DNA from: Phyllosticta citribraziliensis
Taxonomy: Eukaryota
Reading direction: 5' to 3'
Length of the DNA: 64,000 nt
NCBI RefSeq assembly: GCF_038025025.1
Contig: NW_027117339.1
Span: 62,001-126,000, forward strand
In this document: in pieces, positions 13,546-64,000 of the stretch
Position numbering within the stretch: the stretch's first letter is position 1
Layout: each line of letters starts with the position of its first letter
The notes under the pieces: model-generated
What the model was told of the DNA's origin: nothing
The model's database searches: none
The model's input: the letters and a program-made list of their open reading frames with translations, nothing else
Position numbers and translations under genes: made by a program

Positions 13546-14151
13546 CTAGTCCTTCAGGCCGTTCCTGTTCTTGAGCTCGGTGAACAGCTCGACGTACTTC
13601 TTCTCGGCCTCATCGGGCGAGGTGCCCTTGTCTGCCTCCTCCTGCCACGCCCGCTTCATGGCCTTCTTCTGTAGGTGGGCGGTGTGTTAGCATCGTGTGT
13701 GTGTTTTGAAAAGCGACAGCGACGGGGAACGCATCATCCCTCGACGTGTGGGGACTCTGGCGGTGGCCGTCGAGGAGAGACGTGAAAGATGGGCTGTTTG
13801 AATATGACGACGGGACCAGCCAGCCATCCATCCAGCAAGCAAATCAAGCACCGCCCAAGGAGATCGAACGACGTACCGCAAACTCGGTGAAGCCAGGGTT
13901 GGGCGCGTCCTTGACGTTGTAGCCGCGGGCAATCTTGGCGTATGCGTACAGCTGTAGCGAAAAGACGTCAGTCGAGCCGTCCGCGTGTCAAAAGGAGAAG
14001 CAGTAGCAGCAGCTGCTGCGTTCTGGAGGAGTGGATGACGCACCTGGAGCTGCTCGCTCTGCGAGGCGTCCTTGAGCTTGCCGGCCGTCTGGAAGGCCTG
14101 GCGGAACTCTTCGCCGGTCTGGCGGGGGTCGTCCTTGAACTGGTCGGCCAT
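13546..14151 (-). CDS. Small acyl-CoA-binding protein (ACBP)-like, ~101 aa, 3 exons (14151-14044, 13951-13877, 13668-13546)
   Basis: Spliced product MADQFKDDPRQTGEEFRQAFQTAGKLKDASQSEQLQ|LYAYAKIARGYNVKDAPNPGFTEFA|KKAMKRAWQEEADKGTSPDEAEKKYVELFTELKNRNGLKD*. GT..CAG introns; ACBP pattern (LY..K, PG, AW, A...YV.L). Not recovered as one ORF in the track. Confidence 0.8.
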
Positions 14152-15155
14152 GATGTGTGTGATGTTGTTGTACGGTAGAGAGGGTGTGTGCAAAGGGTTG
14201 TGGTGAGAGTGACGGAAGGTGGTGAGAGCTGAGCTGAGAGTTAGTTGAGAGAGGCGAGGATCTGATCTGTTGGCCCGCCGGCAGCAAGCAGGTGTGGGGT
14301 TAGCGGGGCACGCTGAAGCTCTGGCGTCATGAGCGACCCAACAAACATGTCATCCCCGGCTGTCAGCAGCATGTGAACGACCAGACAAGCCACAATCCAC
14401 CTCACCTGCTCAGCGCTCGCTCCCATTGCACTGGGCTGTCGAATTGGTCACACTCCATGCTGGCTGGCTTCATGGTCGCTCCAGGTCGGCGCCGTGCGTG
14501 CAGAGAAGAGACCTGCAGAGCTTGCATTCCGACGACGAACCTGCCAGGACAGCAGGGCAGTTTTGAGAATGCGGTCGGCCACTTTGAACAGGATGTCTCC
14601 GACGAAGGATCGATTCTCAGGTCGTGGCTGTTTTGCTATGTAGGACTGACTCACAGAGCATTTATTGTCTGTCCGCGTACTCCACCCATCCTGAGGGTTG
14701 AAAGCTGCTCTCCTTGAAGCTCTCACATCATCGCTCGAATGGCACACTATGTCTAGGGCCAGGAGATGGCAGCGTGCGGCGCTGACAACCCTCCTCGTCT
14801 GTTCCCGATATTTCCGTACTCAGACTGCAGAGACTTCCTAAAAGATGACAGCCCAGCCCAGCCTCAGGAACATTAGATCAAAGGTGGGAAACACATTGCA
14901 CGCGGCACACGGCACTTGGGAAACTAGGATCACGGGCGAGAGAGAAGAGACAAGAGAAGAGCTTGCGTGAGCCAAAATACCTACGATCCAACCCGCAGTA
15001 CGATACGACGACAACCACTCAATCCCACATTTTCTCTGTCCAAGTGATTGCTGTTGGAAAAAGATCGCGGCGCACATGCCTGCTGCTTGCCTCTCACTCC
15101 CTCTGCTTCAGTCGCCCACTCCACAGCCTTGCCCACATACCTCAACACGCAGAAC

Positions 15156-18100
15156 TTACAACTTGGGCTTGCTTGCCTCGAGCAGCTCCGCGCCCGCACC
15201 CGCAATCGCCAACCGGCCCGTCTCCTTGACCTTGACCTGGAAGACGACCGTCTTGCCCACCTTCCACATCTCGGTCCGGAGCGTCTCGCCCGGGATGACG
15301 GTGCCGGCAAAGCGCACCTTGATGTTGCGGTACGGGCCGAACGTGTTGAGGATGTGCTTGCCCGCAATGCCAAACGAGCACAGCCCGTGCAGGATGGGCT
15401 CCTTGAAGCCGCCCACCTTGCTGAACTCAGGGTCGATGTGCAACGGGTTGCGGTCGCCGCTGAGCCGGTACAGCGCCGCTTGCTCGTCCGTCGTCTTCTC
15501 CTCGACGACCACGTCCGGGCTGTTTTCCTTGCCCTTGGGCGGCGCGTGCACCGCCGTCGCCGCGCCCCGGTTGGTTCCCTTCTTGGGCCCGCCGAAGCCA
15601 CCGGATCCGCGGATCACGACGGCCGATTCGTTGTAAAAGACTTCCTCGCCCGTCTCCTTGATGGTCGTGATGGAGCCGTACGACACGACGGCCGACTTGC
15701 CCTTGTCGACGACTTCGACGAGGAACGGCGTCGCGACGAGCGTGGCGGCCGTCGGGATCGGGTACTTGCGGATCTCGAGGAATTGCTCGCCGTGCAGCAG
15801 CATCATTGGCGAGAAGTTGGGCACAATTTCGTCCCAGGAAAAGGGGAGCACGGCGTTGAAGGGCGGAATCACACCAAAGGTGGGGACAGGGCCAAAGGAG
15901 TCGTGGTTTTCGTACACGAGGTGGAGATCCGTACGCTTGGCACCAATTCCGAGGTCTAAAAGAGTCAGACACGGTGTAGAGAAGATATACAACCAACTTA
16001 CTGTAGAGGATGACGTCCCGGTCGTCGTAGGGGAACTCGGTACCCTGTCCCTTGGTCTTCTTCGCAACTTCAATGGCTTGGAGAATTTCGTTGCCCTCGC
16101 CTCCAGACTCTGACGCTGTAATTTGGTTATTAAAGATCCAAAGCTGGGGAATGGCGGATTGATGGTTGAGTAAACGGGTATACATTGAAGCTATTCACAA
16201 AATGTGCCAAAGAGGAAAGATGCGCCGCAAGATTGCCAAGCTAAAGCTTCGACTTACCCGCCGCTCCGCCAGAACGGTTGTTCATGTTGGCCATGATGCT
16301 CTTGAGACCGTCATTTCCGTCCTCGGGGTGGTCCGCACGACCGTCGTCGAAGTTGATAATCTTCTGCCATACTCCCTTTACGGCCTCTGGGGTAAGGGGG
16401 ACGTCGACCGGGAAGCCGTGGCCTCCGCTGCGTTGCCATCTGGTGCGTGCTTGCCAACCAGAGCCGACTTCAAAGAGACCGCCAGTCGGGGGGTCAGGGA
16501 CCTTGTCAGAGCAAAGAGCAACGACGAGCGGTGCCACGTAGTCGGGCTTGAATGCCTGGACAAGCTCCTCTGGCAAAATTGAGCGGGTCATGTTGGTTCC
16601 CGCATTCGGGGCGATGGTGTTGACAAAAATGTTGTACTTGGCTCCCTCACGCGCGAGCGCTCTGGAGAATCCGAGGATACCACACTTGGCCGCCGCGTAG
16701 TTTGCCTGGCCGAAATTGCCGTAAATTCCGGAGGTGGATGTCGTGTTCACGATACGGCCGTATTTTTGCTTGAGCATATAAGGCCATGCCGCTTTGGTCA
16801 CCTTATAAGTTCCCCTGAGATGAACATTCATGACCTGATCCCACAGGCTGTCGTCCATGTTGGCAAAGGCCTTGTCGCGGAGGATACCGGCATTGTTGAT
16901 GATGATGTCGATCCGGCCATAGGCGTCAATGGCAGACTTGACAACCTTTTCACCCTCCTCAGCAGAAGCCTTGTTGCCAACAGCAGCACCACCTGCGCTC
17001 TTGATTTCGTTGACAACGTTGTCGGGGTTGACGAGATCGTTGACAACCACCTTGGCACCGTGCTTGGCGAACAACAGAGCGTATGAGCGACCCAGTCCGC
17101 CACCGGCGCCAGTGATCAAGACCACCTTGTCCTTGAACTCGAGCTTCTCGGCTGGTGGGTTGGGGGGAAGCTTTTGCGCCTCTTCCAACAACTCCATGAA
17201 ATTGGCGGGGCCGGTGGGGAAGCTGGGCTGCGAAAAGTCGTTGACGTCGTTCCACTTGGCGAGCACGCCTCCGGGGGTCATGGAGTCGTCGGCCTTGAGA
17301 AGACCACCCTTGGCGCGTTCCCACCGCAGCTTCGCAACATGTCCTCCGCCAACCTCGAAGATGGAACCAGTTTCCTCAGTATTCGACGAGTGTACGAGGA
17401 CAGCCACGAGAGGGACTACCCAGTCCGGCTTGAGGTTCTCGAGCATGTCCGGAGGCATGACTGTTTGGGTCATGCGGCTAGCGGCGATGGGCGCAATGAC
17501 ATTGGCGATGATGTTATACTTGAAGCCCTCCTTGGCGAGGGTCTCGGTGAAGCCGACCTGAGCAAGTTTGGCAGCTGCAGACCGTCAGTTGGCGTCACTA
17601 CCCAGGCGTCGATCAACGTACCAGAATAGTTACACTGGCCAAAGCTTCCAAACAATCCGGCGGAGGATGCGGTGTTGATGACTCGGCCGTACTTTTGCTT
17701 CCGGAAGTGTGGCCAAGCCGCTCTTGCGCACTGCCAGAGTCAATTCCAACTGTCCCATTTGCGACTACGATCCGATCCGTACCTTGTATGCGCCCTTGAC
17801 GTGCACCTGGTTGATCAAGTCCCAGTCTTGGTCGCTCATGTTCTTGAAGCTCACGTCGCGAAGGATTCCGGCATTGTTCAGCAGCACGTCGATGCGCCCA
17901 AAAGCCTTGATGGCGGTTTCGATAATCTTGTCGCCATTCTCGACGCTGTCGTAATTTGCGACGGCCTTGCCACCGGCCTTTACGATTTCATCAACGACGA
18001 CGTCTGCGGCCTGAGGAGTTCACATGTCAGTCTCGGGGACCGAGAAGCGGTGGGAGATGACAGCTGCCAAACGCACCTTTGTCGAAGTGCCTTCGCCCTT

Positions 18101-18235
18101 GAAAGATCCGCCCAGGTCGTTGACGACAACGTTTGCGCCGCGGCTGCCAAAGAAGGTCGCGTATGCCTTGCCGAGACCGCCGCCAGCACCGGTGACGACA
18201 ACGGTCTGGCCGTCGAACCGCAGCTTATCAGCCAT
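15156..18235 (-). CDS. FOX2: Peroxisomal multifunctional beta-oxidation enzyme MFE-2 (two 3-hydroxyacyl-CoA dehydrogenase domains plus hydratase 2), 6 exons (18235-18077, 18010-17783, 17730-17622, 17574-16258, 16115-16002, 15955-15156)
   Basis: Two SDR domains ([21 protein letters not shown]); hydratase-2 motif [14 protein letters not shown] and [11 protein letters not shown]-terminus ..ASKPKL (PTS1-like). All introns are GT-AG and restore the frame. Confidence 0.96.
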
Positions 18236-18569
18236 GGTGGGGAGAGAAGAGTGGGAGACAAAGAGGCTGTGACGACGCTAGCTTGCGCTCAGATGCGATA
18301 GAGGGGTCGAGTAGGGGAGAAGAGGGAGAGAATGGAGAGGAGATCAAGTCTGTGGAGGGTATCGAGGAGTAGTATGCATGTTCCTGGAGCAAAGCCGAGC
18401 TCTAGACGGCTAACGTCGTCAGTGAGCCTCGGTAATGATCCGGCCCGCGCAGCCATTGGTCGACCCGTGGGGCTCCCGGATTTTGCGGGCAAGGTGCACG
18501 TGCCACCTTGGGGTAGCCCAACACTTGGCACTTCACATGCGCGCTAGAGACTACACCATTCTGCCAGCC
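18236..18569. promoter_or_regulatory. Short bidirectional promoter (FOX2 / kinase) containing a CCTCGG FarA/FarB-type element
   Basis: 334-nt divergent gap; CCTCGG at 18427-18432 matches the known Aspergillus fatty-acid induction core. Confidence 0.55.
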
Positions 18570-61266: not shown

Positions 61267-62764
61267 TTATGCCGCGCCAGCGCTGACCATGGGCCGTGAA
61301 ATCCGAGTGGGCTGCTCGCCCGCACGGACGATGCGGTTGCCATAGTCGTCCTTGATGTACGCGCTGTCCTTGTTTTCGCGATTGGCCCGCTTCCAAATCT
61401 CGACCTCGCAACCGCCGCGGATGACGCCGATGCGCATCGTCGACAACAAGTTGTGGGCCGCGTTGGAGTGGTCGTACACACCGCCGTTGAACATGGCGGT
61501 GGCGTCCTTGCCGAGACCGGAGCGGATCATGGCTTTGCCACCGGGGTGGTCCTGAATGAAATCGGTGATGTCGTGAACAACGCCGGCGACGGCAATGAGG
61601 CCACGGCCATTCTTGGTCTGGTCAACGTAGTCGTCCCACTCCATGACGGGGAGCTGGTCGAGGGGCACGCCCCAGTCGAGCTTGGTGCGCTTCTGGTCGA
61701 GCTTCTTCTGAGCCTGCTGGATGCGACCCTTTTCGATTTCATTGGCACGGAACTGCTTGAGGTCGTAGGCAAGGCCGAGCTGCTTCCAGGACCAGATGCA
61801 CCACTTGGTGGGGTCGTACTGGAACCACTCGATGGCGTTGCGGTAGTCGCTGGGGAACTCGTGGTGGAAGTTGTGGTATCCCTCACCGAGGGTGACGAGA
61901 GCGGTGATGACGTGGTCACGGGGAGAGTTGCGGTCGTCAAAGGGCTGGTCGCCGAGCCAGTGGGCCAGAGAGTTGACGCAGAAGGTGGCCTGCTGGACGA
62001 AAAAGGTGCGCAGGATACCGGCGTAGATGAATCCACCCCACCAGTCACCCCAGCCAAGACCAGAAACCAGGGTGGGAAAGATGAGACTCATGAAGATGAC
62101 GACCTTGATGTAGTGGCGGTGCTGCCAGACAACGACGGGGTCATCGTTCAAGTCGGAGATGTCGGTCCTGCCAATACGCTTGGGGTTTTGCTTCATGACC
62201 ATCCAACCAAGGTGAGAGTACAACAGACCCCTGGAGCCGTTAGCTTCATGGTGCAACGCTGGTGATGTGGGAGAAAACATACTTGCGGACGGAGTAGGGG
62301 TCCTTGTCGGTGTCGGTGTAACGGTGGTGAGCACGGTGGTCCCTGGACCACCATCTGATGGAGCCCTCGACGGCGCCGCCACCAACGGCAGCGAGGAAAA
62401 TCTTGAGGGGAAGCGAGGCCTTGTAGGAGCTGTGGGCCCAGAGACGGTGGTAGCCAGCAGTGATGCCAAGACCGGTCCAGTAGTAGTAGATGATGGACCA
62501 AACGAGCGTCTTGAGGCAGAGAGGAGTCCAGAGGGCGACCAAGAGACCGGTCAAGGGAACACCGCCGATGAAGGTGACATTGAGCCAGTTGACGTGCTGA
62601 TACCAGTTTTCCCAAGTGATGGGGTAGTCGGTGATGTGCTTTTTGGTCGGGTCGTACTTGGGGTTGCGATTTGGCTCCGAGGGCTTGGCCATGGGCGAGG
62701 GCTGGGTGGAAGAGAATTCAGGCTTGATGGCCTGCTCGCCGGCGACGGCCTGGTGGGAGGGCAT
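61267..62764 (-). CDS. OLE1: Delta-9 acyl-CoA desaturase with C-terminal cytochrome b5 domain, 2 exons (intron 62282-62231)
   Basis: His boxes [15 protein letters not shown] and GEGYHNFHH; b5 HPGG motif. Confidence 0.97.
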
Positions 62765-64000
62765 GTTGTGGAGAAGCAGCAGCTGTCGAAGCTGGCGGGG
62801 GCGAGAAGTTGAGGACGGGCCCAGGTAGAGGTGTGTTGGTGAAAGGCGGGCGACGGGGGAGAGAAAAAGGGTCGCTGGGGAGGGGATTGGAAGGGAGGGG
62901 AGAGGGAGGGCGAGCAAGTGCTTTTGAGCGGCATCAGTCAATGACAGAAGAGATGGGTGGTGTGTTTGCAGTTCCCCGGTTTGGTTTGCCCCAACCCCAA
63001 CCGCCGAGACGAAGCCGGGATGCAACTTCTCAACGGAATTGGCGCACGGACCACTACTCGTCCTCCATCGCTCCAGGTCCGGCTCTCTCTCCCGTCCACC
63101 ACTACTGTACCTATGTACCATCACCACCACCACCACCACTACATCACCGATATGCGCCGACGTCTGCTCCATTCTCCTCACTCGGCCGATATCCACCCAG
63201 CTTCCAGCCATCCACCGGCACCCATTGGATTCCTCCCCGCCCGCCACCCACGGCACCTCTCAGCCCTCAGCCCTCACCTCAGCCCTACGCCCGGCCATAT
63301 GCACATGTCCCTGTCACTCGTACCCGACCTCGGCTGACGCTACAAATGTACAACATGTTGTTGAGATCCATACGCCGTACTCTCTGCTTCACATGGCTTG
63401 CAACACACGCCTTCCGACTGGTCCGCTACACTTTCCAACGGCCGAATGCGCCACGCCACACCCACGACTCTCGTCCACTCCTCAACCACATGCAACCTTG
63501 CCCATCATCTGCCCGCCACCTGATACGGACGACCACTTGGTTGGAACTTGGAGTGTGTAGGCAAAGTCACAGCGACTTGATACTTGCACATGCTGCTACC
63601 CCGTCCCAAAATGCCGGGTCCTGTCCGAAGCCTCCCGACTCCGAAACGGTTGAACTGGAGGCTGGCTTGGCTGCTCCAGCTTGACCTCGTGTGCTACCAT
63701 CGACACTCTACATGACCACCTGTCCCTCCTGTGAAATCACGCTCAACCTCTCTTGCAATGCTCGTGCCCTCGCTCCTTGCGCCGTCGCGCCATCGTGGCA
63801 ATGGTCACGGCGGCGGCAACGGCACGGGACGCCCCAGCCAGCCTGCGGTCCGTCACGCTGTCGCCCCCTTCGACCGAAGCAAAATTCGACGGCCCAACGG
63901 CAACAAGAAACGTAGCCTTGACCACTCTATTCCAACCTCCGGCCGAGAGTGAGACTTGTCAAAACCGTCCATGACGCCTTTTATCAACAAAAACAGCATC

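Follow-up and report, generated by a model that had tools for sequence, protein, structure and literature searches.

Intron 4 of FOX2 in Phyllosticta citribraziliensis and a possible short, dehydrogenase-only peroxisomal isoform

The gene considered here is FOX2, which encodes MFE-2, in a 64,000-nucleotide (nt) stretch of Phyllosticta citribraziliensis DNA (NCBI RefSeq assembly GCF_038025025.1, contig NW_027117339.1, positions 62,001 to 126,000). This whole stretch is referred to as the window, and all coordinates are counted within it. Directly after its donor, intron 4 of FOX2 encodes an in-frame G-K-S-K-L followed by a stop codon, a tail resembling a peroxisomal targeting signal type 1 (PTS1), and an assembled RNA contig from one of four runs enters the same intron and stops within it. 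Together with the retention of this tail in relatives, the data suggest, with a confidence that is about evenly balanced, that a real short peroxisomal dehydrogenase-only isoform exists in this clade and is made mainly by a message ending inside intron 4. FOX2/MFE-2 performs steps two and three of fungal peroxisomal beta-oxidation, and is required for growth on fatty acids and, in several plant pathogens, for virulence. To our knowledge, it is regarded as a one-gene, one-protein enzyme.

The features of the gene and of its fourth intron are:

15156..18235, minus strand: FOX2/MFE-2 coding region, six exons, 908 amino acids (aa), C-terminus -PKL
18235-18077, 18010-17783, 17730-17622, 17574-16258, 16115-16002 and 15955-15156, minus strand: the FOX2 exons
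16258..17574, minus strand: exon 4, encoding the last part of dehydrogenase domain A, then domain B and the first part of the linker
15156..15167, minus strand: P-K-L codons and stop TAA, the C-terminus of full-length FOX2
16116..16257, minus strand: intron 4, 142 nt, phase 1, GC 0.42
16252..16257, minus strand: intron-4 donor GTAAGT
16241..16258, minus strand: read-through codons G (16258-16256), K, S, K and L with TAG (16243-16241), a PTS1-like tail
16178..16199, minus strand: TGTGAATAGCTTCAATGTATAC, with the sole TGTA of intron 4 (16184-16181)
16126..16134, minus strand: branch-site-like TTTAATAAC

The gene has the MFE-2 architecture of two tandem short-chain dehydrogenase domains followed by hydratase-2/MaoC. 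Its exon-4 open reading frame (ORF) matches Pfam adh_short (E 1.1e-51), exons 5-6 match the Pfam families MFE-2_hydrat-2_N (E 2.6e-38) and MaoC_dehydratas (E 6.1e-33), and domain A, in exons 1-4, aligns full-length to 2et6_A and to P0210, the B. dothidea protein KAF4302819.1. Orthology to the latter is indicated by 83% identity over 908 aa. Intron 4 separates the second adh_short domain from the MFE-2 hydratase-2 N-terminal and MaoC domains.

An earlier sequence-only reading of this DNA had placed intron 4 in the linker between the second dehydrogenase and hydratase-2 domains, had contrasted its 142 nt with 46-66 nt for the other four introns, and had read through its donor to an SKL-stop at 16243-16241 in a gene whose spliced product ends in -PKL. 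Each of these points is borne out: the first by the Pfam layout, the second by borders that are spliced in all four RNA runs (introns 1, 2, 3 and 5 measuring 66, 52, 47 and 46 nt), the third in the sequence, and the last by the 908-aa translation, which ends ...SKPKL. Its description of the branch site as poor was right in direction and overstated in degree, as intron 4 carries ATAAC compared with CTGAC or TTGAC in the other four introns, and is thus only mildly off consensus.

On the minus strand, the exon 4/intron 4 border reads GCG GCG G|GT AAG TCG AAG CTT TAG, with the donor GT at 16257-16256 and the acceptor AG at 16117-16116. Read unspliced, the 604 exonic residues are followed by five intron-coded ones (GKSKL), giving 609 aa. 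PTS1 tripeptides follow the consensus [SAC][KRH][LM], to which the read-through product conforms, with -SKL immediately before the TAG. The tail is glycine-rich and has a lysine just before SKL; a genuine full-length FOX2 from another fungus (P0057) also terminates in AGKSKL.

RNA from four runs (X1, X2, X4 and X13) was aligned to 15100-18300 as assembled contigs without strand. X1 and X2 are labelled as the same organism, and the X1 contigs are identical to the window. X4 is labelled as another organism, with some contigs at least 99% alike and the remainder much less so, and X13 is a plant-metagenome RNA library containing a relative, with contigs mostly 90-99% alike. Every run shows splicing of all five FOX2 introns at the predicted borders, intron 4 through the joint 16115/16258. 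X1 had just three contigs on the region: one of 1326 nt (depth 1108), with the 3' untranslated region (UTR), exons 6 and 5 and 30 nt of exon 4; one of 1951 nt (depth 182.6), covering exons 4 to 1; and one of 125 nt (depth 402), in which the last 30 nt of exon 4 run on into the first 93 nt of intron 4, and whose two terminal letters do not fit the window. This last contig is placed as follows:

16165..16287, minus strand: X1 read-through contig, candidate 3' end of a short mRNA, ending at 16165, 76 nt past the stop

Introns 1, 2, 3 and 5 are entered by no X1 contig. Two other origins of the 125-nt contig were considered and rejected: DNA contamination, because no other intron is covered, and an alternative donor within intron 4, because the contig would then carry about 30 nt of exon 5 and not two letters.

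The sequence-only reading had derived its short isoform from retention of the whole intron, and this route finds no counterpart in the RNA contigs, which attest to the presence of a form but not to its absence. No contig reaches the acceptor of intron 4 or spans the intron, and bins 16063-16169 show exon depth only. As the read-through contig extends just 93 nt past the donor, a message ending inside intron 4 fits better than retention. An RNA ending at 16165 would have a short 3' UTR; full retention leaves more than 1 kb downstream of the stop. For X1, we infer that a sizeable share of FOX2 RNA passes the donor and terminates 76 nt beyond the TAG, at about 93 nt of intron sequence. Separately, a minor X13 contig (depth 5.74) joins 16113 to 16258 with two other letters between, and probably comes from a second, related organism rather than from an alternative acceptor.

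If a short isoform is made, the reactions likely involve: normal splicing of intron 4 to give full-length MFE-2; passage of the donor by a variable share of transcripts, which would be cut and polyadenylated in the intron, most likely about 76 nt past the in-frame TAG; and translation of the resulting message of about 2 kb into a 609-aa protein with two (3R)-hydroxyacyl-CoA dehydrogenase domains and the GKSKL tail. Whole-intron retention would be a less likely source of this message than 3'-end formation within intron 4. Acting as a PTS1, the tail would then allow Pex5 to import the dehydrogenase-only enzyme into peroxisomes. We infer the 3' end, translation, import and any benefit of the short form from the data described here. 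Were the proposal correct, the ratio of peroxisomal hydratase to dehydrogenase activity could be set at the RNA level.

The second line of evidence is a comparison of tails across relatives, made at the protein level. Because non-splicing gene callers extend exon 4 into the intron, the exon-4 ORF was used as the search query. In 36 of the 120 proteins listed, the conserved FDDGRADHP motif is followed by the stop after no more than about 40 residues. Most of these end in V (SKV 11, GKV 4, AKV 3, NKV 2, RKV 1, KEV 1, SQV 1; 23 in total); a further eight end in SKL 4, SRL 2, ARL 1 and SKI 1, and the other endings are AGL 2, GAL 1, RVG 1 and KGT 1. A second protein search brought no new truncated forms, and a third, with the last 40 residues, contributed just one SKV and two SKL endings (new members P0231, P0246 and P0249).

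The B. dothidea FOX2 belongs to a 13-member cluster represented by P0073, and a tree of the 244 residues upstream of intron 4 places the window FOX2 as sister to this cluster, as would suit a Botryosphaeriales-type ascomycete. All six exon-4 ORFs in the cluster (P0212, P0216, P0217, P0218, P0219 and P0220) end GGKSKL, on three different linkers: ...ISNRSKPAGGKSKL, ...MQNRSKPAGGKSKL or ...FSNRSGSAGGKSKL. P0111, which ends ...IQNRSKPAGGKSKL, also has GKSKL, so that a GKSKL-stop is present in all seven Botryosphaeria-type ORFs seen. In the full-length proteins of this cluster, the sequence ...SKPAG|(E/D)SSEGGDNEIL indicates the same phase-1 intron. Read-through of neighbouring introns serves as a control. 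For intron 1, the B. dothidea sequence (VRMIPALPELP...) shares just the donor-coded V-R with the window; for intron 2, where the window reads VRIGS-stop and B. dothidea VRLVVAFGLDSDGS, the donor-coded V-R is again all that is common. As these tails diverge at once, the five-codon intron-4 tail and its stop are kept, at the protein level, where other intron sequence is not.

A second clade is 69-75% identical to the window protein, less than the approximately 79% of two Sordariomycete models, those of Colletotrichum salicis and Truncatella angustata. Its members end in GGKSKL (P0084, P0250, P0251, P0252), GGRSKL (P0246), GGQSKL (P0249) or GGHSKL (P0253), such that the SKL-stop is fixed in seven sequences while position -4 is K, R, Q or H. 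These changes are single-base steps that would fall on donor positions +3 to +5. As judged from the proteins, this clade may have either the same intron with a tolerant donor, or a dehydrogenase-only gene of which SKL is the constant end. The sequence-only reading had named absence of the SKL-stop from relatives among its grounds for abandoning the isoform; it is instead kept in all Botryosphaeria-type ORFs seen and in this second clade.

Several observations weigh against a short isoform, some concerning the RNA, some the tail itself and some the wider distribution of the intron. Most also bear on an alternative that we consider unlikely, namely that intron 4 is an ordinary constitutive intron, in which a consensus phase-1 donor on a Gly/Lys/Ser-rich linker incidentally produces the SKL-stop. 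Intron-reading transcripts would then be processing noise, degraded or untranslated, and the likeness among relatives would reflect shared ancestry or RNA-level constraint. Favouring this alternative, intron 4 is spliced in all four runs, and three of them (X2, X4 and X13) lack an intron-4 contig, the depth of their intron bins being exactly that of their exon parts; one of the three is very deep and from the same organism. Read-through of the donor is seen in one run and just the spliced form in the others. As contig assembly drops minor branches, the missing contigs are weak evidence. In the contig data, no poly(A) tail is visible at the end of the X1 contig, and since contigs are strandless, this contig may be antisense RNA starting near 16165. 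Processing noise, however, does not readily account for an intron-4 contig whose depth is comparable to that of the exons, nor for coverage of intron 4 alone.

The tail itself is in part forced. A phase-1 GTAAGT donor dictates G, K and the first base of S, leaving free the rest of S and K-L-stop. Read-through of intron 5 (15956-16001, minus strand) starts Y-S-K-L (A|GT AAG TTG) and continues for 191 codons; GTAAGT donors therefore generate S-K or G-K by themselves, here with no signal. In addition, relatives without the intron often have GGKSK in the linker (P0121, P0015, P0029), so that some of the tail may have been inherited from the linker. Set against these points, when the donor GTAAGT is fixed and the remainder of intron 4 is shuffled 200,000 times, the tail is SKL in 0.036% of cases and [SAC][KRH][LM] in 0.28%. 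Given the many introns in many peroxisomal genes per genome, an SKL tail by sequence alone makes a weak case, which gains weight because of the comparison with other fungi and the RNA.

That comparison also has its exceptions. P0120 starts G-K but ends GKGT, and P0095 and P0097 end AGL, P0045 GAL and P0113 RVG. None of the 13 B. dothidea cluster members is a 609-aa ORF, although the full-length 904-aa ORF is found on 16 contigs, and the Dothideales cluster of P0068, a close relative, is without intron 4. Viewed as proteins, the sequences would look the same under RNA constraint and under peptide constraint, and the deep comparison amounts to roughly one old family split plus one clade of undefined gene structure. 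What an ordinary intron leaves unexplained is that the donor-independent K-L-stop is kept in every Botryosphaeria-type sequence, where the tails of introns 1 and 2 diverge at once, and that a distant clade holds the SKL-stop while position -4 changes.

The same intron has a different character in other fungi. A metagenome scan with alignment of the last 115 residues yielded 80 loci that were kept. In 47 of these intron 4 is absent, the ORF running straight through the linker, a distribution that also favours an ordinary intron over a short isoform. Another 26, most of the intron-bearing fungi, read ...K|GTATGA (also AAG|GTATGA) in phase 0, with the tail -KV-stop. The remaining loci are L027 (K|GTATGC), four that end too early, one without the motif, and the ambiguous L059. 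An SKL-type tail occurs in none of the 80 metagenome loci, and -KV tails are not canonical PTS1s.

The GTATGA donor is accompanied by other changes in the 16 distinct introns that are fully delimited:

GTATGA-intron loci: L009, L010, L024, L028, L031, L042, L049, L051, L053, L055, L060, L064, L066, L071, L073, L075

These introns are 87-175 nt long, and their sequence beyond the donor is not conserved. All 16 carry TGTA 20-78 nt into the intron, often as TGTAYATYTGTAGTTGTAC or TGTATATTAG, with 32 occurrences seen as compared to 6.9 expected by shuffling. The intron of L027, with its GTATGC donor, is 53 nt long and has neither an early stop nor TGTA. Other introns in the same loci leave gaps of 33-62 nt, and GTAAGT donors are present in 9 of the 13 found by pattern. 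In the -KV fungi, then, four features occur together: a donor that departs from consensus, a stop straight after it, a longer intron and a cluster of TGTA. In other systems, clusters of TGTA serve as signals for 3'-end processing.

This combination favours an attenuator, a second alternative to which we assign a low probability. Regulated premature 3'-end formation in intron 4 would set the level of full-length FOX2 mRNA, and the truncated product would have no role of its own, the immediate stop and, in this clade, the SKL serving just to keep the by-product short and in the right compartment. Consistent with attenuation, 26 of the 27 phase-0 metagenome introns have the off-consensus donor leading to V-stop, the single exception being L027, and the -KV endings do not fit the canonical PTS1. 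The proposal does not explain why SKL, and not any early stop, is kept in two clades. Nor does it suit the window, where intron 4 differs in having a consensus donor, a single TGTA and no match to the element model.

By eye, the TGTA of the window's intron 4, 20 nt before the X1 contig end, looks like the TGTA-rich element of the other fungi. A single TGTA in this intron is not significant compared with shuffles (p = 0.37), and R1, a sequence-only model of the element built from the 16 introns, gives no match in intron 4, its best matches elsewhere in the window having E 0.61 and worse. Homology of the window's intron 4 to this element was accordingly rejected, for want of an R1 match. An Rfam scan of 15900-16500 (E up to 1) gave no RNA family and no sign of an intron-hosted small nucleolar RNA.

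Further indications of a short isoform come from truncated forms elsewhere. ORFs of about 600 aa run unbroken from Met1 to the intron-4 stop, on contigs little longer than the ORF:

P0001: 604 aa on 2072 nt
P0002, P0255 and P0254: 601, 601 and 589 aa on 2164, 1982 and 1840 nt
P0005: 607 aa on 2172 nt
P0007: 605 aa on 2012 nt
P0016: 605 aa on 2165 nt
P0030: 604 aa on 1914 nt
P0045: 604 aa on 1908 nt
P0052: 604 aa on 1901 nt

L031, a genomic relative that is 94% identical to P0001 in the last exon, shows a 51-nt tblastn gap, read as an intron, that P0001 skips. In the P0007 (Coniochaeta) and P0030 (Podospora/Schizothecium) clusters, genomic contigs give exon ORFs of 110-157 aa or 358-429 aa, so the long ORFs of about 600 aa come from RNA with the upstream introns removed. 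P0013 and P0265 have 603 aa on 3182 and 4075 nt, sizes that would fit full retention. Gene models of about 605 aa are also annotated in Colletotrichum salicis, Truncatella angustata, Diaporthe eres and Podosphaera aphanis, and public models of this length bear the names Fox2 or 'short chain dehydrogenase'; a genuine short form would account for their recurrence. In the powdery mildews, Podosphaera aphanis among them, P0061 and P0052 are 604-aa truncated FOX2 proteins that end SSSKL or SSSKI and are nested among -KV lineages in the tree. As L or I after K is impossible from a phase-0 GT donor, the gene structure of these fungi must differ.

From these forms, a broader proposal may be drawn, which we hold tentatively and with rather more doubt than belief: that intron 4 of FOX2 is an old, conserved switch across filamentous ascomycetes, yielding full MFE-2 and a dehydrogenase-only enzyme of about 604 aa. 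The switch may consist of a long intron with an in-frame stop one to five codons from the donor, to which many lineages may have added the off-consensus GTATGA donor and a TGTA-rich 3'-end element, and the short form may come from an mRNA of about 2 kb from the one gene. Clades may have gained a PTS1 separately, as SKL in the Botryosphaeriales-type fungi, SKL/SKI in powdery mildews and ARL in another lineage. A stand-alone gene may have arisen from the short form in some Dothideomycetes (-SRL, possibly also the GG[KRQH]SKL clade).

The exon-4 ORF matches 2et6_A, a 604-residue '(3R)-hydroxyacyl-CoA dehydrogenase', with E 8.7e-174, and since this dehydrogenase-only MFE-2 has been crystallised, a protein cut at intron 4 can fold. 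PDB 2et6 is an engineered, hydratase-deleted yeast MFE-2 comprising domains A and B, with nearly the same cut (604 residues as compared to 604 exonic residues); unlike the natural FOX2 read-through, it is a laboratory construct. The 2et6_A protein is reported to be active. Mammalian MFE-2/HSD17B4 undergoes cleavage within peroxisomes, which separates its dehydrogenase from a hydratase-SCP2 portion. As in the FOX2 proposal, this gives a free dehydrogenase unit in the peroxisome; in contrast to it, the unit arises by proteolysis after import and from another domain make-up, where FOX2 would involve a choice at the RNA level.

In intronic polyadenylation, splicing of a long or weak intron competes with an internal 3'-end site, producing truncated isoforms. 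FOX2 intron 4 has in common with this process an in-frame stop near the donor; unlike in the established cases, its internal 3' end is hinted at by one contig end alone. Cryptic PTS1s that arise by alternative splicing or stop-codon read-through occur in fungal glycolytic enzymes of Ustilago and Aspergillus. There likewise, the PTS1 reaches the C-terminus only after alternative processing at the level of RNA or translation (Stiebler et al. 2014, PMC4207609). Those full-size cytosolic enzymes gain a peroxisomal copy, whereas FOX2, already peroxisomal and of three domains, would lose its hydratase; the FOX2 tail also differs in lying inside an intron directly after the donor. In Yarrowia lipolytica malate dehydrogenase, alternative 3' splice sites 4 nt apart decide the PTS1 (PMC3372373, PMC3798809). 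As proposed for FOX2, it depends on splicing there whether the protein ends in a PTS1. The Yarrowia case involves acceptor choice, two full-length products and dual targeting, and FOX2 would differ in its donor read-through or early end and its truncated product. FOX2 would thus add a case in which an intron-hidden PTS1 truncates an enzyme instead of re-routing it. The sequence-only reading knew of no description of a short FOX2 isoform, and the full-text literature searched, subscription journals and supplementary files excepted, yields none; the passages of the review PMC3798809 that were searched mention neither Fox2 nor 'multifunctional'.

The -SRL proteins of Mytilinidion/Lepidopterella (P0086, P0096, P0222) resemble the proposed short form in their length of about 610 aa and their PTS1-type end, and in carrying two adh_short domains but no hydratase. 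They differ in a conserved coding extension of 20-30 residues with its own intron and in long tree branches, and are probably a separate or split gene, not an isoform. Within this group, a stretch of 24 residues in the NCBI model P0222 is missing from the Logan ORF P0096, as if P0222 had kept an intron.

C-termini of full-length FOX2 matches vary widely (SKL, AKL, GKL, QKL, TKL, AKI, AKM, TRL, ARL, AML, GNL), which places -PKL within the FOX2 family range.

Elsewhere in the window, an ORF at 62246-63259 (minus strand) has an HRLWAH motif and, by its motifs, presumably resembles a delta-9 fatty-acid desaturase. Upstream of it, a TGTACATTTGTAG motif at 63340-63357 scores E 0.61 with model R1, which is not significant. 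Directly downstream of FOX2, on the same strand, lies a gene at 13549-14152 (minus strand) with the start MADQFKDDPRQTGEEF. Its last-exon fragment gives a match to Pfam ACBP (acyl-CoA binding protein) with E 6.7e-5, which falls short of the gathering score because the query was just 46 aa long; by this match, a lipid-metabolism gene adjoins FOX2.

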